Source of the DNA: an uncultured Desulfobacterales bacterium | Lineage (GTDB): Bacteria; Desulfobacterota; Desulfobaccia; Desulfobaccales; Desulfobaccaceae | Direction: 5' to 3' | DNA length: 64,000 nt | NCBI GenBank assembly: GCA_964428565.1 | Contig: CAYRYV010000013.1 | Location: 1 to 64,000 of the forward strand | In this document: in pieces, positions 12,326 to 61,590 of the stretch | Layout of the letters: every line of letters starts with the position of its first letter | Numbering within the stretch: position 1 is the first letter of the stretch | The notes under the pieces: generated by a model | Told to the model about the DNA's origin: nothing | Databases searched by the model: none | Seen by the model: the letters and a program-made list of their open reading frames with translations, nothing else | Made by a program: the position numbers and the translations under genes

Positions 12326-12534
12326 CCTGTTACCTCCTGCATCAGTAAGGTTAATCCCGGCGAACCGTTTTCATTGACTACCTTACCTCAGCAAATGTTA
12401 TGCCATGCCTCTATTATTCATGATATGAAGAGGTTATCCATAATTGTTCCCCAGCCCCCCCTTCCTTGCGTGCCGGGAAGTTCAACAACTATGAGGCGAT
12501 TTCCATAACATACAAAAATCACTGAATATTATAT

Positions 12535-12551
12535 TGTTTAATAATTAAACA
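12535..12551. promoter_or_regulatory. Perfect 8-1-8 palindrome TGTTTAATAATTAAACA in the 464-bp AT-rich gap inside the hdr cluster
   Basis: Related copies TGTACAATAATTAAACA (22934-22950) and TTGTTTAATATTATTAG (about 23448-23464). Confidence 0.4.
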
Positions 12552-14955: not shown

Positions 14956-15628
14956 GGACGACATATCTCCTCTTGTAAGCCGGGTGGATGACGGTACCCG
15001 GGGTAGTGCCCCGCCCGTGGGGATGGAGCGGTAGGATCGCATCGATCTGCTCCAGCCTTCCCTGCTGTTCCAGCCTGGCATAGATTTCACACCAGGCGCA
15101 CTCCCGGTCCGGATTCACCTCGCATTTTCCCTGGACGTTGCCGCCGCAGGGGCCGTTGAGCAAGCCCTTGGGACACATGGTTTGCGGGCAAATCCCCCCG
15201 GTAACCCCCAGGTAACACTGATGGCAGGCTCGGCAGCGCTCGGTATACCACCCCGCCTCTTCGTTGACCCCGATGAAGGTGGTGTTGAGGGCCGGGAAGA
15301 CCGGTTTCATGCCGGACATTGCCGCCAGGAACTGCACCCCGGCGCCGCAGGCCGTCGAAATGACTACGTCGTAGTCGGCCACCGCGTCGCTCAGGGGCTG
15401 AATAAACTCCCGGTCGCACTGGCGCTCCACCGTCATCTCGCCGATCTTCGGGTGCTTGCCTTCCTGCCCCCAGGCGAGCTTCAGTTGCGAAGCCAACAGC
15501 CCCACCTCTTTTTCCCCGCCTACCAGGCAAACCGCCACACAGGTGCCGCACCCGGCGATGAGAATCTTCTCATAGGGCGCCACCGCCGCCTTGATCTCCG
15601 CAAAAGGCTTTCGTTCCGCGATAATCAT
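14948..15628 (-). CDS. metV: MTHFR small subunit MetV-like (MTHFR C-terminal zinc-ribbon-like domain) protein
   Basis: Cys-rich (GCGTCVAVCL..., CRACHQC...CPQTMCPKGLLNGPCGG) like MetV; ATATGA overlap with the upstream mvhD stop. Confidence 0.7.
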   Translation of the reverse strand: MIIAERKPFAEIKAAVAPYEKILIAGCGTCVAVCLVGGEKEVGLLASQLKLAWGQEGKHPKIGEMTVERQCDREFIQPLSDAVADYDVVISTACGAGVQFLAAMSGMKPVFPALNTTFIGVNEEAGWYTERCRACHQCYLGVTGGICPQTMCPKGLLNGPCGGNVQGKCEVNPDRECAWCEIYARLEQQGRLEQIDAILPLHPHGRGTTPGTVIHPAYKRRYVVHE

Positions 15629-16089
15629 ATTTGCACCGCCAGTTCTTGTTCTTCCGGGACCATGGCCTCCGGTGTCCAGTTTGGGTTCAGGGGACTGGGC
15701 CCCAACCGTTTGACTCTTTCCACCATTTCATTCACTGCTATCACCCACTTGGGGGCGTCTGAAGCAGCCACCTCATACATGATCAGGCGTTCTGAGCCCA
15801 GACCGCATTCATCCAGCAAGTTCTGGCCATATTCCACCCGTTCGCGGGCCCGCAGATTCCCTTCCAGGAAATGGCAGGTGCCCGCCTCGCAGCCACTCAC
15901 CATAACGCCGTCGGCCCCGGCCTCGAAACCCCTCAGAATATGCAGGATGTCAATCCGGCCGGTGCACAGGTACTTGACGATCCGCACGTTGGGCGGATAC
16001 TGCATCCGGGCCGACCCCGCCATATCCGCGGCCGTGTAGGTGCAGTAGGTGCACACCAGGGCCAAAATCTTAGGAGTAAATTCTGTCAC
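15625..16089 (-). CDS. mvhD: Methyl-viologen-reducing hydrogenase delta subunit family protein (MvhD), Cys-containing copy
   Basis: ILALVCTYCTYTAADMAGSARMQYP...YLCTGRID...GCEAGTCHF MvhD hallmarks; start GTG 16089 chosen by alignment to the paralogue (the track's ATG 16110 lacks an SD). Confidence 0.8.
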   Translation of the reverse strand: MTEFTPKILALVCTYCTYTAADMAGSARMQYPPNVRIVKYLCTGRIDILHILRGFEAGADGVMVSGCEAGTCHFLEGNLRARERVEYGQNLLDECGLGSERLIMYEVAASDAPKWVIAVNEMVERVKRLGPSPLNPNWTPEAMVPEEQELAVQI

Positions 16090-16195
16090 TTTTTCTCGAC
16101 TCCCACACATGGGGTGACCGTCGGCCAGGGCTCGCAGAGGGCGCTAAATATGACCATATATTGCACGTCCAGGTCAGGCCGTTTCGACATGGCCT

Positions 16196-16657
16196 TCAGG
16201 TTTGCACCGCCGGTTCTTGTTCGCCCGGAACCACAGCCCCCGGTATCCATTGCGGACTCAGAGGACTGGGGCCCAGAGCCTTGACTTTTTCCGTCATTTC
16301 CTTAACCACGGCAACCCATTTGGGGGCATCGGAGGCGGCGATCTCATAGAATGCCAGACGCTCGGCCCCCAGGCCGCATTCTTCCAGTAAGTGCCGTGCA
16401 TATTCCACACGTTCGCGAGCTCTGAGATTTCCTTCCAGGAAATGGCAGGTGCCGGCCTCTCAGCCACCCACAAATATGGCGTCGGCCCCGGCCTCAAACC
16501 CTTTTAAAATATGCAGGATGTCAATCCGGCCGGTGCACAGGTACTTGACGATCCGTACATTGGTCGGATACTGCATCCGGGCCGACCCCGCCATATCCGC
16601 GGCCGTGTAGGTGCAGTAGGTGCACACCAGGGCCAGTATCTTCGGGGAAAATTCCAT
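16196..16657 (-). CDS. mvhD: MvhD paralogue with in-frame TGA (16460-16462) at the position of the conserved Cys (GC-EAGTCHF); proposed selenocysteine-containing MvhD, 153 aa read-through
   Basis: Track ORFs 16460..16657 and 16196..16408 are in the same frame and ~80% identical to the downstream mvhD on both sides of the TGA; the TGA replaces a TGC codon; SD GAGGAGA before ATG 16657. Confidence 0.6.
16427..16443 (-). other. Candidate SECIS-type hairpin (AUUUCCU-GGA-AGGAAAU) starting 16 nt 3' of the in-frame UGA
   Basis: 7-bp perfect stem seen directly in the sequence; the same region in the Cys paralogue has one wobble pair, so this is not discriminating on its own. Confidence 0.25.
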
Positions 16658-21211: not shown

Positions 21212-22053
21212 AACAATCCTTTATTCCGCAGTAAAGGCCGGGGGTCCACCAAATGGCGGGCCAGCCAGGCGGCGACCTCCGGGTGCCCCAGGGCCAGTCC
21301 GATCAGTTCGGTGAAATAGAACACCGGCAAGTAATAGTTCTTCCCTGCCTTCTTTGATATGCGGCCCTGGGAGAGGTCCAGATTGGCCTGGCACATCTGG
21401 CAGGCCACCACGAAACACTCGGCCCCGGCCGCCAGAGCCCGGTCATAGAGGCGCCCCACCAGAGTATCAATGAGATCCGGCCGGGCCATCGCCAGGCCGG
21501 CCCCGCAGCAGTCGGTCTTATAGGACCAGTCGAGAGGGTCGGCCTGCAGGACCTGAAGCAGGCGCTCCATATCCTTGGGGTTTTCGCAATCCACCTTATC
21601 CGTGATCTCCGGAGGCCGGGATGCCAGGCAACCGTAGTAGCCCACCGCCTTCAGACCGGTGAGGGGCCGTACCGTCTTCTGTTTCAGGATGGACAGAAAT
21701 GACTCCTGGGAGAGAAATTCCAATAGATCCCAGATCTTTGTCCCATTTTTCCGACCAACCGGAGTCTCTTGCCGGCGGTTCTGCTCCTTTTCGGCGGCCT
21801 TGAGGCGGTTGAAGCACAAGGCGCAGGGGACCACCAAATCCATACCGGTTTGCCGGGCCAACGCCAGGTTGCGAGCCGGCAGTTCCAAAGAGAGTCGATG
21901 GTTGATACTGTGAGCCGCGCTGGCGCCGCAGCAGTTCCAATCCTCCAGTTCCACCAACTGCAGGTCCACGAGGGGAGCGACAGCGGCAATGGAGGCAGCA
22001 TAATCCGCCGCAGTGCCTTCCAAAGAACAGCCGGGGTAATAAGATACCTTCAT
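21208..22053 (-). CDS. hdrB: Heterodisulfide reductase subunit B (two CCG domains)
   Basis: YYPGCS...CCGxxx and YYGC...CCGAG motifs; start at MKVSYYPGC (ATG 22053) after AAGG. Confidence 0.8.
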   Translation of the reverse strand: MKVSYYPGCSLEGTAADYAASIAAVAPLVDLQLVELEDWNCCGASAAHSINHRLSLELPARNLALARQTGMDLVVPCALCFNRLKAAEKEQNRRQETPVGRKNGTKIWDLLEFLSQESFLSILKQKTVRPLTGLKAVGYYGCLASRPPEITDKVDCENPKDMERLLQVLQADPLDWSYKTDCCGAGLAMARPDLIDTLVGRLYDRALAAGAECFVVACQMCQANLDLSQGRISKKAGKNYYLPVFYFTELIGLALGHPEVAAWLARHLVDPRPLLRNKGLL

Positions 22054-22060
22054 AAATGCC

Positions 22061-22642
22061 TTAACCCCCTGCACGTTTAAAGATTTCGTTGATTTCATCC
22101 CGCCCCTTGAGGGCTGGCGGGCCAATCGGGCGTAAGCGGCCGCGTTTGAAGAGGGCCCAACCCAACTTGGCATTTTCCCAAAGCTCCTGAAGTTGCGGTC
22201 GTCGCCGAAGTTGATACAGGGTGAAGCGGCGCATCAACGCCACCTCCGGCAAGCGGCCGCCAGCCCGACGGAGGCTGTCCAGGAAGAAGCGCTGGAAGGC
22301 CGCCACCTCCGGCTGGTCGACGGCTTTGCCCTGCCGAATCGCCTCCTCTTTGAGCCAGTCCATGACCCCGGCGATGTCAATGCCGTTGGGGCAGCGAGTG
22401 GTGCAGGTGACGCAGGAGGCGCAGACCCAGATGGTCCGGCAGCCCAGAAGCATCTCCGTCTGACCCAGGAGAGCCAGGCGTATGACCCGGTCCGGGAGCA
22501 GATCCATGGCGAAGGTCAGGGGACAACCGGCAGAACATTTCTTACATTGAAAGCAGGCGGACAATTGAATAGCGGCCTCTTGAGAGAGACGTTCCTGCAG
22601 TGAAAATGCCGGGGCCAGCGGTTGGTTGATATTGAGTTCCAT
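22061..22642 (-). CDS. hdrC: Heterodisulfide reductase subunit C (2x[4Fe-4S])
   Basis: CFQCKKCSAGCP and CASCVTCTTRCP ferredoxin motifs; SD AGGAG 9 nt before ATG 22642. Confidence 0.8.
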   Translation of the reverse strand: MELNINQPLAPAFSLQERLSQEAAIQLSACFQCKKCSAGCPLTFAMDLLPDRVIRLALLGQTEMLLGCRTIWVCASCVTCTTRCPNGIDIAGVMDWLKEEAIRQGKAVDQPEVAAFQRFFLDSLRRAGGRLPEVALMRRFTLYQLRRRPQLQELWENAKLGWALFKRGRLRPIGPPALKGRDEINEIFKRAGG

Positions 22643-22879
22643 GAAGACAGGCTCCTGATTATCGGTTGGCATCTATGCCCGGGTCAGACCCCATACATAA
22701 CACAAAACAGATTTCAGGCTGCCCGGGGCTTACAGGGCCTTAAAAATTCCTCCGGTCCACTTGGACCCGGACAAAATATATTGTTAATGCAATTTCGTTG
22801 CCATAATTTAAATAGCCGTGATATCGGCATCTTCATTATCAACAAGATGTCTGCCGGGACCGGAATTTGTCGAAATAAC

Positions 22880-22897
22880 CAACATAAGATTGTTCAG
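22880..22897. promoter_or_regulatory. Rex-like operator candidate TTGTTCAGAATTTCACAA in the hdrCB-hdrL-mvhD-metVF promoter region
   Basis: Matches the Rex consensus TTGTGAA-N4-TTCACAA at 12 of 14 defined positions; AT-rich promoter island. Confidence 0.35.
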
Positions 22898-22933
22898 AAT
22901 TTCACAACGTATTAATATTATTGAAATCTATCT

Positions 22934-22950
22934 TGTACAATAATTAAACA
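22934..22950. promoter_or_regulatory. TGTACAATAATTAAACA near-palindrome (second copy of the 12535 motif)
   Basis: 15/17 identity to the perfect palindrome at 12535-12551. Confidence 0.35.
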
Positions 22951-22982
22951 GGCCCCCGTTCCAGAAGGCGCTACGCCTCCAC

Positions 22983-23405
22983 CTAACGAACCGCAACCGC
23001 CCCGGTAGTCAAGACTGCTGCAATGGCCGCTTTGATCTCATCCTCGGTAAAAGGTTTTTGCAGATAGTCGGCAGCCCCCAATTTCAAGGCATCGACAGCG
23101 GAGGCCACGGTGGAATAACCGGTGATGACGATGACTCTGGTTTCGGGCCACTGCCGTCTCACCTCCTTGATGACCTCCATGCCATCAATATCCGGCAAAA
23201 GCAGGTCGGCCAAGATCAGATCATAAGATTTCCGGCGGAACATCTCCAGGGCCAGTTGGCCTGTTTGGGCCCAATCCACTTCATAACCGGCTTCGCCGAG
23301 GACCATTTGCAACCCTTTGGCCACATTGGTCTCATCTTCCATCAACAGAATTTTCGACAACGACGCCGTCTGGGGCCCGGCAGTTGGTGGCAAAGCACAC
23401 ATCAC
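22983..23405 (-). CDS. Single-domain response regulator (CheY-like receiver)
   Basis: KILLMEDE...DLILADLLLPDIDG...YLQKPF receiver motifs. Confidence 0.8.
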   Translation of the reverse strand: MMCALPPTAGPQTASLSKILLMEDETNVAKGLQMVLGEAGYEVDWAQTGQLALEMFRRKSYDLILADLLLPDIDGMEVIKEVRRQWPETRVIVITGYSTVASAVDALKLGAADYLQKPFTEDEIKAAIAAVLTTGAVAVR

Positions 23406-24522
23406 CTTTCCTCTGGGAAAAATGCACTCAGCTACAGGTTCAGCAATCTTCGTGCCTATCCCGGGAATTGGTCATTGTTTAATATTATTAGTTATAACTA
23501 ACAGTTAATAGAAAGAGGGGTGACGGGAAAGCGGGTAGCGTATGTTTATTTATACGGAACTGCAACGAGACATGGATTTTGACTAAATATATTATAATGT
23601 TATGTGGGTATAGAATAATATACACATACGCCGGGTTGCTGAATGCATCAGATAAAAAGGTCTCGCTTAGGTTCTCATACTGGAATTGGCGGCCCTTTGT
23701 TCCCCTCCTCGGGTTGGGGATAAACAAAAAAATTTAATCTTATCAAATTGATGGATTTTTTTTTAAAACCGCCCCCCGTTTTTCGGACATAAGTATTTCT
23801 TAAGCCGCCTGAGCGCTCGAGCCTGTGCGAGCCCTGCTGCCTTGGCCTGCCAGGGACTCAGAAAGGCGTTTGTTCCACCAGCCGCTCCCAAGTGGAGATG
23901 TTCACAAAGCCACGAATCGCTCCCCTCCTGAATGTTACAGAAAACTCGCCCGCAGATGACTCTCCCTCAGGTCCGGATGAGGGGATCGCCTTTACGGCCC
24001 TTCTCCCGGAAAAGCAGGTCCAGGGATTCGCCCGGAAGATACGCAGCACCGCCTCCCGTTTCCGGGAAGCCGTCCAACGTTGGCCCGGGGCCAATGGCCC
24101 CACCTCGTGCGTCAGGCCGCTTATGTGGTCGCCGTGGAGCGCGTCGTGGACGCGCTGAAACTCCGGGGCTGGGTTTAACCCGGGCCCAAGGAACCGATTA
24201 TGCTGGGTTCAGGGGAAAGAATCTGATAATATTTCTCTATCGTTGACAGCCTGCAATGCGGGCAATCAGCGCTGAGAGAGGAAATCCTTACTGGACAATC
24301 GCGTAGATTTCACTGCAAATCTGCTGTAGCACTCGTAAGGGGATGGTTTATCAAGATAATCTGAAAAGATTTCCCTGCCATCCCCTTATTCAGCTTTCTC
24401 ACGGGGGCGGGGGTGTCGGCAAAAGTTGTACCGGCTTAACCGATTATGGCGTAGAAATGGTACAATATGCTGTTCTTTCAGTATAATCTGGCCAACAGAC
24501 TTTTCATGAAATGAGGTGTTAC

Positions 24523-25371
24523 ATGGCAACTTATGATTTTGACAGAGTTATACACATGGCAATGCAGAAAGGCCCCATGCGGGTGATTGTCATTATCGGC
24601 ATTATTCTGTTGCTCTTTCTCTTTACACGTCCATGGGTTCAGGTCGGGGCGGGGGAAAGAGGAGTGGTCCTTAATTTCGGTGCGGTCCAGGAGTATGTTC
24701 TGGGAGAAGGGCTGCACTTCAGAATACCTGTCGTGCAGACGGTGGCCCTCATGGATGTCAAGGTGCAAAAATCCTTGACCAACGCCGCGGCCTCATCCTC
24801 CGATCTGCAGGAAGTCAGTTCGGAAGTGGCGCTCAATTATCACATAATTCCGGATAAGGCGAACATCGTCTATCAGACCATCGGCTTATACTTTAAAGAT
24901 CGCATCATTGATCCGGCAGTTCAGGAAGTGGTCAAGGCGGTGACGGCCAGGTACACCGCCGAAGAGTTGATTACCAAGCGGCCGGCGGTAAGCGAAGCCA
25001 TGCGGACTACCCTGAGTGAAAGACTCCTGGAGCATAATATCGCAGTTGATGCCTTCTCCATCGTCGGGTTCAGCTTCTCCAAGATCTTTATGGAAGCCAT
25101 CGAGGCCAAACAGACGGCCGAACAGCTTGCCCTCAAGGCGCGCCGGGACTTGGAGCGGATTAAGATCGAGGCTGAACAAAAGATTACCGCGGCCACGGCA
25201 GAAGCGGAGTCCTTGCGGCTTCAGCGGGCCAATATCTCTCCCGATCTGATCGAGTTGCGCAGAGTTGAGGCCAATCTCAGGGCCATAGAGAAGTGGAACG
25301 GCATTCTACCGCAAGTTACCGGTGGCGGCGCAGTGCCGTTTATCGGCATCGGGGAAACGCCGAGGCGATAA
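24523..25371 (+). CDS. SPFH/band-7 (prohibitin-like) membrane protein
   Basis: N-terminal TM helix, SPFH core, C-terminal coiled-coil (EAIEAKQTAEQLALKARRDLERIKIEAEQ); SD GAGGTG; lower GC. Confidence 0.8.
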   Translation: MATYDFDRVIHMAMQKGPMRVIVIIGIILLLFLFTRPWVQVGAGERGVVLNFGAVQEYVLGEGLHFRIPVVQTVALMDVKVQKSLTNAAASSSDLQEVSSEVALNYHIIPDKANIVYQTIGLYFKDRIIDPAVQEVVKAVTARYTAEELITKRPAVSEAMRTTLSERLLEHNIAVDAFSIVGFSFSKIFMEAIEAKQTAEQLALKARRDLERIKIEAEQKITAATAEAESLRLQRANISPDLIELRRVEANLRAIEKWNGILPQVTGGGAVPFIGIGETPRR

Positions 25372-25397
25372 TCGAAAAAACTGAAACGGGTGAGCAA

Positions 25398-25690
25398 TGC
25401 TGCAAGCCCAGATGATAGGCAGCGGCATACCGGCGTTGGACGAAATCCTGGATGGGCTGCGGTGGGGGGATAATGTCGTCTGGCAGGTGGATGGACTTGA
25501 TACTTACCTGAGAGTGGCCCTTTGTCCGGCAGGCCCTGCAAGACCGCCGTACAGCCATCTACATGCGTTTTAGCCTGGATGCCAATATCCTCGAACCGCT
25601 TTCCGGGTATATCACCGAAGAAGTTGGCCCCCGACCCGGTTTTGAGTCGTGCGGCTTTTTGAATGGTATGCCACCGGAAAATACTCACTG
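25398..25690 (+). pseudogene. Decayed, frameshifted fragments of an ATPase-like gene (remnant of a RecA/KaiC-superfamily GIPALDEIL..GL motif) next to the tRNA pair
   Basis: Short ORF MLQAQMIGSGIPALDEILDGLRWGDNVVW... continues in another frame and lacks a P-loop; no intact gene. Confidence 0.3.
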
Positions 25691-25853
25691 AAACAGCGGA
25701 AGCTTCTGGATTTCATACGTTCGAACTGCACGTTATAAGGATGGCGAGCTGCAGCCGGAGTTCAGGCAACCATTTGATATGATTTTCAAATATAGCCAGG
25801 AAGCCGAAAAAGAAAAAGCAGAAAATCCTGATGGTCTTCCGCCTTTGGAGGTA

Positions 25854-25931
25854 TGGCGTCCCCAACCGGATTTGAACCGGTGTTGCCGGCGTGAAAGGCC
25901 GGTGTCCTGGACCAGGCTAGACGATGGGGAC
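25854..25931 (-). tRNA. tRNA-Glu (anticodon UUC)
   Basis: Cloverleaf read by hand: acceptor GUCCCCA/UGGGGAC, anticodon loop CUUUCAC, T-loop UUCAAAU, CCA encoded; close match to E. coli tRNA-Glu. Confidence 0.85.
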
Positions 25932-25936
25932 GCTTG

Positions 25937-26012
25937 TGGTGGGCCGTGTTGGACTCGAACCAACGACTCTCTGCTTAAAAGGCAGATACTCTACCGACTG
26001 AGTTAACGGCCC
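25937..26012 (-). tRNA. tRNA-Lys (anticodon UUU)
   Basis: GGGCCGU...ACGGCCC acceptor, anticodon loop CUUUUAA, T-loop UUCGAGU, CCA encoded; 5 nt from tRNA-Glu. Confidence 0.85.
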
Positions 26013-26409: not shown

Positions 26410-27000
26410 GCCCAGGGGGGGCAGAGGCACACCACCCCGGCAAAAGAGGTACGCGAGGTGTACCGGGGTACCGGGAAAAAATCGCGGGCCCCCCGGTACA
26501 CCGGGGGCGGACGTAGTCACCTTTCTGGCATCATCCTGAATTCCTTCATTATTCATCGCACAAGCCTCATGTCAACGAGCCGGCGGCGTCACGCCGGGGG
26601 CCGGTACCGGCCGGAACAGGTACCGGTTTGTACCGGGGGTGTACCGGGTAAGTCGGTTGTGAGCGCCGGTGGACCGCGGTACCGGTACGGGCCGTCAGCC
26701 GCAAGCGGTGAGTCGGGGACGGGGCGGCCGCTACGCCGGGCGGCGGCGTCCATGGGAGAAAGTGTAACGGAAACGGGCGGGGGTTTCCAGAACAGATGAG
26801 ACACATAGGACACATGTCACAAAATCGTAACGGGGGGAGCATTTTTGGGGGCGCGGGGCGGCGGCGGGGAGGCACCAAAGAAAAAGAAATCCCCCCGGCC
26901 CCCCTTTGTCAAAGGGGGGGCGAAAGGAAAAGAATGGTGGCCAAGCACAGCTTGGCAAAATAATAACGTGCCCAAGTACAACTTGGGCACGAGAAAAAAA
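26410..27000. repeat. Composite non-coding repeat, copy 1 (block B ~26410-26660, block A ~26800-27000); inverted relative to copy 2 at 60521-61170
   Basis: Manual reverse-complement alignment: block A ~95% identical over ~210 bp, including twin hairpins CGTGCCCAAGT-TGT-ACTTGGGCACG and GCCAAGC-TGT-GCTTGGC; block B ~85% over ~230 bp, with GTACCGG/GGTGTACC iterons. Confidence 0.75.
26937..26995 (-). terminator. Intrinsic terminator of the IHF/HU gene: hairpin CGUGCCCAAGUUGUACUUGGGCACG + UUAUUAUUUU, followed by a second hairpin
   Basis: 11-bp perfect stem, 3-nt loop, U-tract on the minus strand directly downstream of the 27092 stop. Confidence 0.6.
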
Positions 27001-27091
27001 GGGCGTTGCCCGCGGGGGCTGGGGAGCGGGACGGGGGGAAAGACAGCGGGCGGAGTTTTTCAGGTGACTACAGATCGACGGAGCAGGGCGG

Positions 27092-27379
27092 TTAATCGTG
27101 GCCGTTAATTCTTTGGCGCAAGATCCCGGAGATCTTAAAGATCACCACTTTGCGGGCCCGTAAGATGAGGTCGGAGCGGGTCTGGGGATTGCGCCCCCGC
27201 CGGGCCTTTTTTTGGCGGACGGAGAATTTGCCGAAGCCGCTGATCAGGATGTCTTCTTCCGCCGCCAATGTCCCCTTCATGATCTCCAGGACTCTTTCCA
27301 CCGCGGCGCGGGCCTCGGGTTTGCTCAACCCCGAGACTTCGTTGATGTTCTGGATGACCTTTTCTTTGGTGAGCGCCAT
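27092..27379 (-). CDS. IHF/HU family nucleoid-associated DNA-binding protein
   Basis: GFGKFSVRQKKARRGRNPQT...beta-arm motif; start MALTKEK with SD AGGAAAGGA. Confidence 0.85.
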   Translation of the reverse strand: MALTKEKVIQNINEVSGLSKPEARAAVERVLEIMKGTLAAEEDILISGFGKFSVRQKKARRGRNPQTRSDLILRARKVVIFKISGILRQRINGHD

Positions 27380-59187: not shown

Positions 59188-60216
59188 TCAATCAAATATG
59201 CTGGGGTGAGCTTTCTTCGGGGTCTTCTGGTGAAAATACTCCAACGCCCGCCGGGTCACCACGCGCCCCCGGGGGGTGCGGCTTAAAAAGCCGCACTGGA
59301 TCAGAAAGGGCTCGTAGACCTCCTCCAGGGTGTCCCGCTCCTCGCCCACCGCCGTGGCGATGGTGTCGATCCCCACCGGGCCGCCGTCGAACTTCTCCAT
59401 GATGGTCAACAGAATCTTGCGGTCCATGCGGTCGAAGCCCTGGGCGTCCACCTCCAGCAGGCTCAGGGCGGCGTCCGCCGTCTGCCGGTTGACGATCCCG
59501 TCGCTCCGCACCTGGGCGTAGTCCCGCACCCTTTTCAGCAGCCGGTTGGCGATGCGGGGCGTGCCCCGGCTCCGGCGGGCGATCTCCCGGGCGCCCCCCG
59601 CCTCGATCTGCACCCCCAAAATGGCCGCCGCCCGGGTGACGATGACGGTCAACTCCTCGGGCCGGTAGAACTCCACCCGCAGCATCAGCCCGAACCGGTC
59701 CCGCAGCGGCGGGGTCAACAGGCCCGCCCGGGTGGTGGCCCCCACCAGCGTAAAGCGCGGCAACTCCAGCTTGATGGCCCTCGCCCCCGGCCCCTGGCCG
59801 ATGATCAGGTCCAGCTGGAAGTCCTCCATGGCCGGGTAGAGGATTTCCTCCACCACGTGGGGCAGCCGGTGCACTTCGTCGATGAACAGCACGTCCCCGG
59901 CCTTCTGGTTGGTCAGCAGGGCCGCCAGGTCCCCGGGCCGCTCGATCACCGGCCCCGAGGTGGTCTTGATCCCCACCCCCATCTCCTGGGCGATGATGTG
60001 CGACAGGGTGGTCTTGCCCAACCCCGGGTGGCCGTGGATCAGGATGTGGTCCAGGGCCTCCCCCCGCCCCTTGGCCGCCTCGATGGCGATCTCCAGGGTG
60101 CGCTTGGTCTCCTCCTGCCCCACAAACTCGCGCAGCCGCCGCGGCCGCAGCCCCAGTTCCAACCCCAACTCGTCCAACTGCAACCGGGGACTGACAAATC
60201 TCTCCGCACTCTCCAT
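59188..60216 (-). CDS. ruvB: Holliday junction branch-migration helicase RuvB
   Basis: [10 protein letters not shown] Walker A, FIDEVHRL, RuvB winged-helix C-terminus. Confidence 0.9.
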
Positions 60217-60520
60217 AATTGCCCTCAGTCTACCGCACTTTTTTCGACAATACAACCATCTTTCCGCCTCCCCCCCCGTACCGCTCCCCGGTACACCCCC
60301 CGCGTTGCCGGGGTGGCGCCGCCACCAGAGGCTCTTCTCCCCGCTCCCCAACTCCTGCCGGGCAACGCCCTTATCCCGCCCGGCTCCCGCCGGGCCTCCT
60401 CTGGTTTTCTGCTATGACGCCGCCGCCCCCGGCGCGCTCTGTTCCCCCGTCCCGCTCCCCGGCACACCCCCGGCTGTCCCCGACCACGTGTTGCCGGGGT
60501 GGCGCCGCCACCAGAGGTTA

Positions 60521-61170
60521 TTTTTTTCTCGTGCCCAAGTTGTACTTGGGCACGTTATTATTTTGCCAAGCTGTGCTTGGCCACCATTCTTTTCCTTTCG
60601 CCCCCCCTTTGACAAAGGGGGGCCGGGGGGATTTCTTTTTCTTTGGTGCCCCCCCGCCGGCTCCCGGCCCCCAAAAATGCTCCCCACGTTACGATTTTGT
60701 GACATGTGTCCTATGTGTCTCATGTGTGTTGGACCCGACCCCGCTTTTTCTGTACAGTGGTAACCGGGCGGCCACCCCGCCCCCCAAACAAACCAGAAAA
60801 ACAATACGTTTCCTTAACTGGAAACCGGAAACCGGAAACTCACCAGGGGCCGTTAGCCGCACCCGCGGCCGGCGCGCCCCGCCCAAGGATTGGGCTATGG
60901 ACAAACACACGCTGTTGTGCAGCATCTGCAACCACCCGCGGCCGGGTCGCCCTTACCCGGTACACCCCCGGTACAGGCCGGTACCGGTACCGGCCTGTAC
61001 CGGCCCCCGGCGGTCCACCGCCGGCCCGTTGATATGAGGCTTGCGCGATGAATAAGAAAGGAAATCAAGATGATACAGGAAAGGTAACTGCCGCCGCCCC
61101 CCGGTGTACCGGGTAACCGGCGTTTTTTCCCCGGTACCCGGTACACCGGCACGCGCCGGTGTGCCCACGG
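60521..61170. repeat. Composite non-coding repeat, copy 2 (block A 60521-60730, block B ~60950-61170); inverted relative to copy 1
   Basis: Same twin hairpins + U-tract and the perfect 32-bp palindrome GGTACAGGCCGGTACCGGTACCGGCCTGTACC; (GGAAACC)x3 between the blocks. Confidence 0.75.
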
Positions 61171-61305
61171 CCCCCCTCCCCCGGCCATCTTCTCCCTCCC
61201 GCGGCCCCCGCCCCCGGGGTGATTGCGCCTGGGGTCGGGAATATGCTATAGTAGGCTCACGCTGGGGGGCCGCCCTCTGGCGATCTCACTTCCAAGGAGC
61301 TGATT

Positions 61306-61590
61306 ATGGCCACCTTTTTCATGTTCGGCAAATATACCAATGAAGCCCTCAAGGGCATGAGCGCCGCCCGCACCACCAAGGTCCAGGACCTGGTGAAGAA
61401 GTATGGGGGCGACATCAAATCCATGTATGCCCTCCTGGGCGCCTATGATCTGGTTTTCCTTGCTGAATTCCCGGGGGTGGGTCAGGCCATGCAGGCCTCG
61501 GTGGCCTTGGCCAAGGCCACCGGCATTTCCTTCACCACCCGCCCGGCGGTGTCCGTGGCGGAGTTTGATCAGCTCATGGCTGCGGTCTGA
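61306..61590 (+). CDS. GYD-domain protein
   Basis: MATFFMFGKYTNEALKG...LGAYDLVFLAEFP pattern of the GYD family; SD AAGGAG. Confidence 0.7.
   Translation: MATFFMFGKYTNEALKGMSAARTTKVQDLVKKYGGDIKSMYALLGAYDLVFLAEFPGVGQAMQASVALAKATGISFTTRPAVSVAEFDQLMAAV

Follow-up and report, generated by a model that had tools for sequence, protein, structure and literature searches.

The stretch of DNA analysed here, 64 kb in length and referred to below as the window, comprises positions 1 to 64,000 of contig CAYRYV010000013.1 (assembly GCA_964428565.1) from an uncultured Desulfobacterales bacterium of the family Desulfobaccaceae. It contains two copies of a composite intergenic repeat, arranged in inverted orientation around a 33.5-kb segment, and each copy combines a block with twin hairpins (block A) and a block with arrays of the short motif CCGGTAC (block B). 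The new comparisons place the twin hairpins in a dispersed family of repetitive extragenic palindromic (REP) sequences and suggest that the two composites are probably paralogous copies of a mosaic intergenic repeat.

Layout of the locus

Both copies sit between unrelated genes. Copy 1 (26457-27000) lies between a tRNA pair and a gene of the HU/IHF family, and copy 2 (60521-61147) lies between ruvB and a gene for a GYD-domain protein. The features of the locus, in order of position, are the following.

25854-26012, minus strand: tRNA-Glu(UUC) and tRNA-Lys(UUU), the outer neighbours of copy 1, 445 nt from block B
26457-26652, minus strand: block B of copy 1, with CCGGTAC/GGTGTACCGGG site arrays on either side of an AT-rich core of about 90 nt
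26548-26575, minus strand: promoter-like element of copy 1, a sigma-70-like TTGACA-16-AATAAT within block B that points outward, towards the tRNA operon
26653-26785, unstranded: spacer of copy 1, not alignable with the spacer of copy 2
26786-26935, unstranded: non-REP part of block A of copy 1, with a GACACAT direct repeat, a G-rich stretch and the palindrome CCCCCCTTTGTCAAAGGGGGG
26906-26935, plus strand: weak inward promoter-like site of copy 1, within the non-REP part of block A
26936-27000, minus strand: REP doublet of copy 1, with the small hairpin at 26940-26956, the large hairpin at 26967-26991 and an A7/T7 run at 26994-27000
26999-27030, unstranded: short module shared by the two copies, here in copy 1, GGGCGTTGCCC...GGGGAGCGGG
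27092-27379, minus strand: HU/IHF-family gene, the inner neighbour of copy 1, with its 3' end towards the REP doublet
59188-60216, minus strand: ruvB, the inner neighbour of copy 2, with its 5' end towards the repeat
60273-60517, unstranded: extra modules between block A of copy 2 and ruvB, namely a 74-nt element present twice, the 33-nt module at 60340-60372 and a GGTGTACCGGG site at 60287-60297
60521-60585, plus strand: REP doublet of copy 2, with the large hairpin at 60530-60554 and the small hairpin at 60565-60581
60586-60733, unstranded: non-REP part of block A of copy 2
60734-60951, unstranded: spacer of copy 2, which includes a (GTTTCCG)3 run and is not alignable with that of copy 1
60952-61147, plus strand: block B of copy 2, with site arrays around an AT-rich core and a degenerate promoter-like core that points outward, towards the GYD gene
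61306-61590, plus strand: GYD-domain gene, the outer neighbour of copy 2, with its own conserved promoter at about 61215-61255

The pair was recovered both by a repeat finder and by gapped blastn. Specifically, the repeat finder returned the inverted arms 26457-26652/60952-61147 (196 nt, 80% identical without gaps), 26844-27000/60521-60677 (157 nt, 96%) and 26763-26869/60650-60756, and gapped blastn aligned block A (26786-27000 with 60733-60521) at 95.3% identity over 215 nt and block B (26457-26652 with 61147-60952) at 84.3% over 197 nt. A previous sequence-only reading of the window had proposed an inverted composite non-coding pair bracketing 33.5 kb, with a block A of about 95% identity over about 210 bp and a block B of about 85% over about 230 bp; this description is borne out, except that block B is shorter than had been stated. 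The divergence between the copies is uneven, at 3.8% in block A and about 16-18% in block B, and the exact stretches common to both copies reach 130 nt and 37 nt in block A and at most 24 nt in block B.

The order of modules is identical in both copies (block B, spacer, block A with the REP doublet, 33-nt module). The inter-block spacers, of about 130 nt in copy 1 and about 195-220 nt in copy 2, show no alignment with each other. The 33-nt module, which lies just inside block A in copy 1 (26999-27030), recurs with 88% identity at 60372-60340 and is displaced by about 148 nt further in at copy 2, where the extra DNA holds a 74-nt element (60444-60517) that is duplicated at 60273-60331 beside ruvB.

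The European Nucleotide Archive (ENA) assembly of the source organism covers the locus in two contigs, which correspond to window positions 1-60873 and 60836 onward and carry a single nucleotide polymorphism; they overlap by 38 nt at 60836-60873, close to the (GTTTCCG)3 run at 60826-60846. This assembly shows the same arrangement, which indicates that the pair is not a one-off artefact of a single assembly. A contig from the Logan collection ends exactly 30 nt into block A, and the repeat pair accounts for the breaking of short-read contigs of this organism at these points.

The twin hairpins as a REP doublet

The small hairpin of copy 1 reads GCCAAGC-ACA-GCTTGGC (26940-26956) and the large one CGTGCCCAAGT-ACA-ACTTGGGCACG (26967-26991), and on the minus strand a T-tract follows the twin hairpins, as the sequence-only reading had described. 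All four hairpins of the two copies are intergenic, as are the short imperfect palindromes (about 20-40 nt) of REP systems. A scan for the 23-nt large hairpin across one genome per species identified 20 loci in other metagenome-assembled genomes (MAGs), several of which contain more than one locus. These MAGs are labelled Desulfobacca, Syntrophobacterales, Thermodesulfobacteriota and "delta proteobacterium", with one labelled Verrucomicrobiota, and 44 hairpin instances were collected across the 20 loci. Within single related MAGs the hairpin is dispersed, with occurrences on 5 contigs in CAWAEI01 and 7 matches in JAQVHY01, and one locus (L008) holds 9 hairpin units in 2.6 kb. For the source organism, the window has two copies of the doublet, and another 7.6 kb (L001) has none.

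In the other genomes the hairpin likewise stands outside genes, in several cases directly behind a stop codon. The sequence common to the window and the other loci is confined to the doublet of about 60-70 nt, with the rest of blocks A and B not shared, and the inter-hairpin spacer AAATAATAA is identical in the doublets of the window, L006 and L008. The stems are furthermore preserved by compensatory change: GTGCCCAAGT...ACTTGGGCAC stands against GTTCCCAAGT...ACTTGGGAAC, a G-C to T-A replacement in both arms that is present in many copies, and the variant GTTCCC...GGGAAC recurs among the 44 instances with the stem kept. The MAG labelled Verrucomicrobiota carries the same REP hairpin at L004 3359-3404, with a second variant hairpin nearby, and this occurrence reflects either a binning contaminant or a family that crosses phyla.

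Three of the loci (L014, L008 and L006) contain 177-aa genes flanked by the hairpins. The products score 111-115 bits against NCBIfam NF047646 (REP_Tyr_transpos, cutoff 80 bits), the family of REP-associated tyrosine transposases (RAYTs), which are domesticated Y1 HUH transposases that spread REP sequences, and also match the E. coli TnpArep structure (PDB 4ER8; PMC3479197), with Pfam Y1_Tnp borderline. The RAYT genes, which lie together with REP units at L008 1160-2570, L014 4180-4840 and L006 3700-4540, are about 80% identical between MAGs. In L008, two REPIN-type units of about 155-195 nt, 94% identical to each other, stand one on each side of the RAYT gene, and REPIN-like inverted doublet arms are found at 1160-1224 and 1289-1353; a REPIN consists of two inverted REP units that together fold into one long hairpin.

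The comparisons demonstrate, at the level of sequence, that the hairpins of the window belong to a dispersed REP family of related Thermodesulfobacteriota genomes, with RAYT genes there. The doublet is in that respect of a known kind, seen in a lineage for which no description was found. It shares with the REP/REPIN-RAYT systems of E. coli and Pseudomonas, whose defining traits are set out in PMC3116915 (Bertels & Rainey 2011), PMC3337134 and PMC5581495, the form of short extragenic palindromes with several dispersed copies per genome (in the related MAGs), the compensatory changes that keep the stems, the inverted pairs that flank a RAYT gene in related genomes and the frequent position just after stop codons. 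It differs from them in that two dissimilar hairpins (17 nt and 25 nt) in tandem make up the unit, in that only two such units occur in the window, both of them inside a longer duplicated block and neither of them a REPIN, and in that the host is a member of the Thermodesulfobacteriota rather than the Gammaproteobacteria, with no RAYT seen in the window itself. Scattered copies, which the sequence-only reading had regarded as the mark of a generic intergenic repeat, are what related genomes show for the twin hairpins; the rest of the composite has no detectable relatives.

The remainder of block A, and block B

Beyond the doublet, block A contributes 150 nt, with the GACACAT direct repeat, a G-rich stretch in which most of the differences between the non-REP parts of the two copies fall, the perfect palindrome CCCCCCTTTGTCAAAGGGGGG, and a weak promoter-like site (TTGTCA-18-AAGAAT) that points inward in both copies. 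On the sense strand of the HU gene, block A can be read as successive hairpins with U-rich tracts behind them, and a scan flagged the large REP hairpin together with the TTATTATTTT that follows it on this strand as terminator-like in both copies. The repeat is non-coding: the differences between copies lack codon periodicity (11, 14 and 10 by codon position in block B), and open reading frames (ORFs) in and beside the repeats have no Pfam match. A protein-coding repeat was rejected on the same grounds, together with the lack of in-frame conservation of the small ORFs, and the "decayed gene fragments" that had been described at the outer end of copy 1 were not confirmed, with no Pfam match for any ORF there.

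The GTACCGG-type iterons described for block B are borne out by the counts: 6.2 occurrences of CCGGTAC are expected in the window and 23 are present, 20 of them in or beside the two copies. The 11-mer GGTGTACCGGG is found exactly seven times in the window, always in or beside the copies: three sites per copy occupy conserved positions, and the seventh exact site (60287-60297) lies about 70 nt upstream of the ruvB start. The tetramer GTAC as a whole is scarce, with 73 occurrences in the window against 218 expected from base composition, and more than a quarter of them are located within the repeats.

Further CCGGTAC sites, spaced 10-11 bp apart, surround the AT-rich core of block B. In copy 1 four such sites, with ends at 26647, 26636, 26626 and 26610, precede the -35 element (26575-26570), and downstream sites follow at 26493-26499 and 26460-26474. 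The promoter scan matched the core of copy 1, TTGACA-16-AATAAT on the outward strand, to the consensus at 11 of 12 positions. Between the copies, the site columns of block B differ at 4 of 62 positions as compared with 31 of 140 other columns (Fisher p=0.008), a lower rate of difference that shows the sites to be more constrained than their surroundings. Downstream of the core lie non-coding DNA and then the tRNA genes (copy 1) or the GYD gene (copy 2), with no partition or regulator genes.

Two further observations concern block B. A perfect 36-nt palindrome at 60968-61003, built from CCGGTAC sites, is present in copy 2 only. Just downstream of the promoter-like core, both copies contain a five-codon mini-ORF (MMPER/MIQER) after an AAGGAA motif that resembles a Shine-Dalgarno sequence (26541-26526 and 61049-61066); its length is the same in both copies and its stop codons differ, and it may well be due to chance.

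Relatives of the composite were sought in several collections. A 20-mer of block A had no match in a scan of JGI metagenomes, and a metagenome scan for three spaced CCGGTAC sites returned 120 loci, all unrelated by blastn and mostly tandem repeats. Scans of viral contigs with block A, block B and the REP hairpin gave no matches, and a viral-contig search for an inverted pair of GGTGTACCGGG gave one intergenic palindrome, also unrelated. The plasmid collection, searched in distant mode, yielded only a 44-nt chance match, and a protein search with a chimeric translation of blocks A and B in six frames found nothing at E values up to 1.

The outer neighbour of copy 2 allows a comparison between genomes. 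In the nearest relative (GYD 82-85% identical), the GYD gene follows 50 nt behind a LexA/ImuA-like/PolB cassette, and homology to the window begins at about 61214, which corresponds to the GYD promoter only. In two more distant relatives, too, a co-directional gene precedes GYD, at a distance of 80-160 nt, and the repeat is absent. The absence of the repeat from these relatives indicates that the 1.1 kb of repeat-rich DNA between ruvB and GYD is lineage-specific and located at a break in gene order. By the same comparison, the idea that the repeat is a regulatory region conserved with the GYD gene is rejected, as the relatives carry a co-directional gene 50-160 nt upstream and no repeat. Also rejected were a remnant of the relative's PolB gene, with only the GYD promoter shared, and a LexA operator, with no GTAC-type site in the relative's lexA promoter. 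The cassette of the nearest relative (L144 5250-9950), which encodes LexA, an ImuA-like protein (Rad51 fold), a DUF8156 protein and a family-B polymerase directly upstream of GYD, is interrupted by a HicAB pair and is lacking from the window.

A probable mosaic intergenic repeat

The available data are compatible with a model in which a mosaic intergenic repeat specific to this lineage, similar to the bacterial interspersed mosaic elements (BIMEs), is present in two paralogous copies that have diverged, and in which these are not the ends of a mobile element; this is the probable, if by no means certain, reading. The composite would have been copied as one piece and would since have diverged by about 16-18%. 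The 130-nt exact stretch and the unequal divergence imply that uniform neutral decay is insufficient and that gene conversion or selection is needed; block A may have been homogenised by gene conversion confined to the alignable island, or it may be under constraint. The doublet of copy 1 follows the HU stop codon at a distance of about 100 nt, and the succession of hairpin and U-rich tract on the HU strand suggests that it probably ends or stabilises the HU transcript. Block B could in turn serve as a platform for a DNA-binding protein around a promoter aimed at the outward neighbour, which would be the tRNA operon in the case of copy 1 and the GYD operon in that of copy 2. A common orientation towards an outward co-directional neighbour would explain why the copies are inverted relative to each other, although two instances are too few to test this. 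Finally, RecA-dependent recombination between the copies could in principle invert the 33.5-kb segment.

Several known repeats offer a frame of comparison. As in the BIMEs of E. coli and the BOX elements of Streptococcus pneumoniae, REP-type palindromes and short motifs here form a collinear intergenic mosaic with variable spacers. BIMEs measure 40-500 bp and occur in hundreds of copies, whereas the present unit spans about 0.6-0.8 kb, was seen in two copies in the window and carries an iteron-flanked promoter-like module that is no feature of BIMEs. The composite also resembles the Correia elements (NEMIS) of Neisseria in being a non-coding repeat that brings signals resembling promoters and terminators into intergenic DNA. 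Their length of 100-155 bp, high abundance, terminal inverted repeats and TA duplication are not seen here. The iteron arrays that flank a promoter in parC of plasmid R1 provide a third parallel: in this type of centromere/operator a sigma-70 core promoter, and in block B a promoter-like core, stands between two groups of short repeats at helical spacing. Unlike parC, block B has no parM/parR-type genes downstream, a chromosomal context and a mixed orientation of repeats.

A number of observations weigh against the mosaic repeat. Only two composite copies were seen in the 64-kb window, and a "family" is shown for the REP doublet alone. For block B as a whole and for block A outside the doublet, the metagenome, viral, plasmid and protein-space searches gave no relative. 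No RAYT gene was found in the window by tblastn over its 64 kb, and its doublets are single rather than REPIN inverted pairs, with no inverted similarity to the doublet in the other 150 nt of block A by blastn self-search. The functional parts are unequal as well: the terminator-like hairpin of copy 2 has no upstream gene on its strand, and the core of copy 2, TTGATA/AATAAG, failed the promoter scan and has lost the invariant T of the -10 hexamer, which weakens the promoter reading. Finally, the contrast between block A (95-97% identity) and block B (84%) is not accounted for by the data, gene conversion and selection both being inferences.

Alternative explanations

The alternative that survives best, which is possible but on balance doubtful, is that the composite is primarily transcriptional, with the block B promoter under a GGTGTACCGGG-binding factor common to the tRNA-Lys/Glu and GYD operons and with block A as an upstream stack of terminators or insulators. 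The conservation of the block B sites above background, their spacing of 10-11 bp upstream of the -35 element, the 11/12 promoter-like match in copy 1 and the terminator-like hairpins of block A all speak for it, as do the same placement of both copies relative to the outward co-directional gene and the extra exact site at 60287-60297, about 70 nt upstream of ruvB and beside the ruvB promoter. However, the -10 element of copy 2 is AATAAG, both downstream operons have their own proximal promoters, the cassette is missing ahead of GYD in the relatives, no gene for a candidate binding protein lies nearby, and only two instances are known. A bolder version, for which the chances appear slim, would have block B as an operator array and the whole B-A unit as a REP-linked cassette of a new, long kind (0.6-0.8 kb) by which a regulated promoter and a stack of terminators reach further intergenic sites in this lineage, with the pair also permitting occasional flipping of the 33.5 kb.

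It is unlikely that the copies act as a recombination substrate in actual use, in which homologous recombination would flip the 33.5 kb as a population polymorphism or a switch. The 130 nt of perfect identity and 215 nt at 95% in inverted orientation would suffice, as homology of this length exceeds the minimum for RecA, and the local gene order beside the repeat differs from that of the nearest relative. Yet GC skew is -0.065 inside the segment and -0.036 and -0.078 in the flanks, of the same sign and similar size, and GC skew at third codon positions by gene strand is -0.116/-0.016 inside and -0.156/-0.008 outside. This match gives no sign of a recent fixed inversion, and the present orientation is read as long-standing. 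Moreover, all contigs recovered from the other assembly and from sequencing runs match the orientation of the window, with no inverted junctions; flipping would bring no obvious change in the expression of any gene; and the window contains no recombinase gene. The proposal in the sequence-only reading that the repeats drive inversion is in this way retained as a physical possibility, given the 130 identical nucleotides, and unsupported by the skew. A site-specific invertible segment is likewise unsupported, with no recombinase family found in the window.

An equally unlikely explanation holds that block A, block B or both are paralogous genes for structured small RNAs. It draws on the folding of block A, which is far better than that of shuffled sequence (z -5.6 and -5.3 on the two strands), and on one compensatory change in a block B hairpin (G-C to U-A). 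The fold signal of block A, however, comes from the REP hairpins and the DNA palindrome and is equal on both strands; block B reaches z-scores of only -1.5 and -1.9; and neither block is bracketed by a conserved pair of promoter and terminator. In the Rfam search, only the two tRNAs reach the gathering score, and nothing meaningful covers either copy at E values up to 10. Among the three proposals of the sequence-only reading, that of an uncharacterised non-coding RNA or regulatory family had come nearest to the truth, in that the hairpins are those of a dispersed REP family, with the Rfam match lacking.

The notion that the copies are terminal inverted repeats of a transposon, island or prophage beside tRNA genes, with block B as transposase-binding sites as in Tn7, Mu and Tn402, is scarcely credible: the outer ends do start with TGT, the roughly 200 bp next to each end hold a number of repeated sites in both orientations and the tRNA pair is 445 nt away, but Pfam scans of the segment and of the window found no mobility gene (transposase, integrase or other), the 5 bp just outside the two outer ends (CGAGG/CCGGC, or CGCGA/GGCAC with a 2-nt shift of the boundary) show no target-site duplication, the cargo is housekeeping (ruvB, ychF and HU among it), and GC content and skew are the same as in the flanks. 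Attachment sites beside a tRNA gene are direct repeats, and the repeats here are inverted. Tn7/Mu-like ends were rejected for want of a transposase and a target-site duplication, and the "ends of an ancient integrated element" of the sequence-only reading are not supported, given the lack of mobility genes and of a duplication and the housekeeping cargo. A replication origin (no dnaA or dnaN nearby, two inverted copies) and a sigma-54 promoter or an IHF site (judged by eye, no match) were likewise dismissed. Overall, the sequence-only reading is confirmed with respect to the pair itself and unsupported with respect to the island and inversion.

Gene content and other features of the window

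The genes enclosed by the repeat pair are ordinary chromosomal genes. They encode HU, a deacetylase-like protein, ferredoxins, isochorismatase, PAS and cyclase proteins, radical SAM enzymes, histidine kinases, YchF, a ComF-like protein, an AddA-like helicase-nuclease, APS kinase, a sulfotransferase, Tad pilus proteins, YcaO and RuvB. The base composition of the segment is that of its flanks, and Pfam scans of the ORFs of the segment and of the rest of the 64-kb window identified no integrase, transposase or recombinase. FeoAB and a MetF/Hdr/MvhD-type cluster are encoded towards the left end of the window. The ruvB gene is solitary, with ruvA neither upstream nor elsewhere in the window, and is preceded by 1.1 kb of repeat-rich non-coding DNA.

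An integration hotspot had been proposed at the outer side of copy 1. Its low GC content is confirmed, as an islet at 22000-26000 has a GC fraction of 0.52-0.53 against 0.63 for the window, but none of the gene fragments could be identified. The islet includes an AT-rich stretch of about 1.1 kb (23405-24510) with no convincing ORF, just before an SPFH/Band_7 gene and the tRNA pair, and with no Pfam or Rfam match. Elsewhere, in the MetF/Hdr-like cluster, a gene of the MvhD/FlpD type (15625-16110, Pfam FlpD) falls within a tandem duplication of about 570 nt (15625-16635), whose 300-nt units are 76% identical with exact stretches of 48 nt and 71 nt. Additionally, a 54-nt AT-rich direct repeat (12498-12551 and 22897-22950, 72% identical, ending TTGT(T/A)(T/C)AATAATTAAACA) has one copy just upstream of a large Hdr/FlpD-type gene and the other adjoining a response-regulator gene, and may represent a shared operator.

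Implications

For annotation, the main outcome is negative: neither "genomic island boundary" nor "invertible element" should be used as a label for the pair. Genomes of the Desulfobacca/Syntrophobacterales type share a conserved REP-RAYT system whose unit, with its two hairpins, is unusual, and no description of it in these genomes was found. The site array of block B is the only part of the composite with some potential beyond this, and with its GGTGTACCGGG sites it presents a clean candidate binding platform for studies of regulation in this uncultured lineage.

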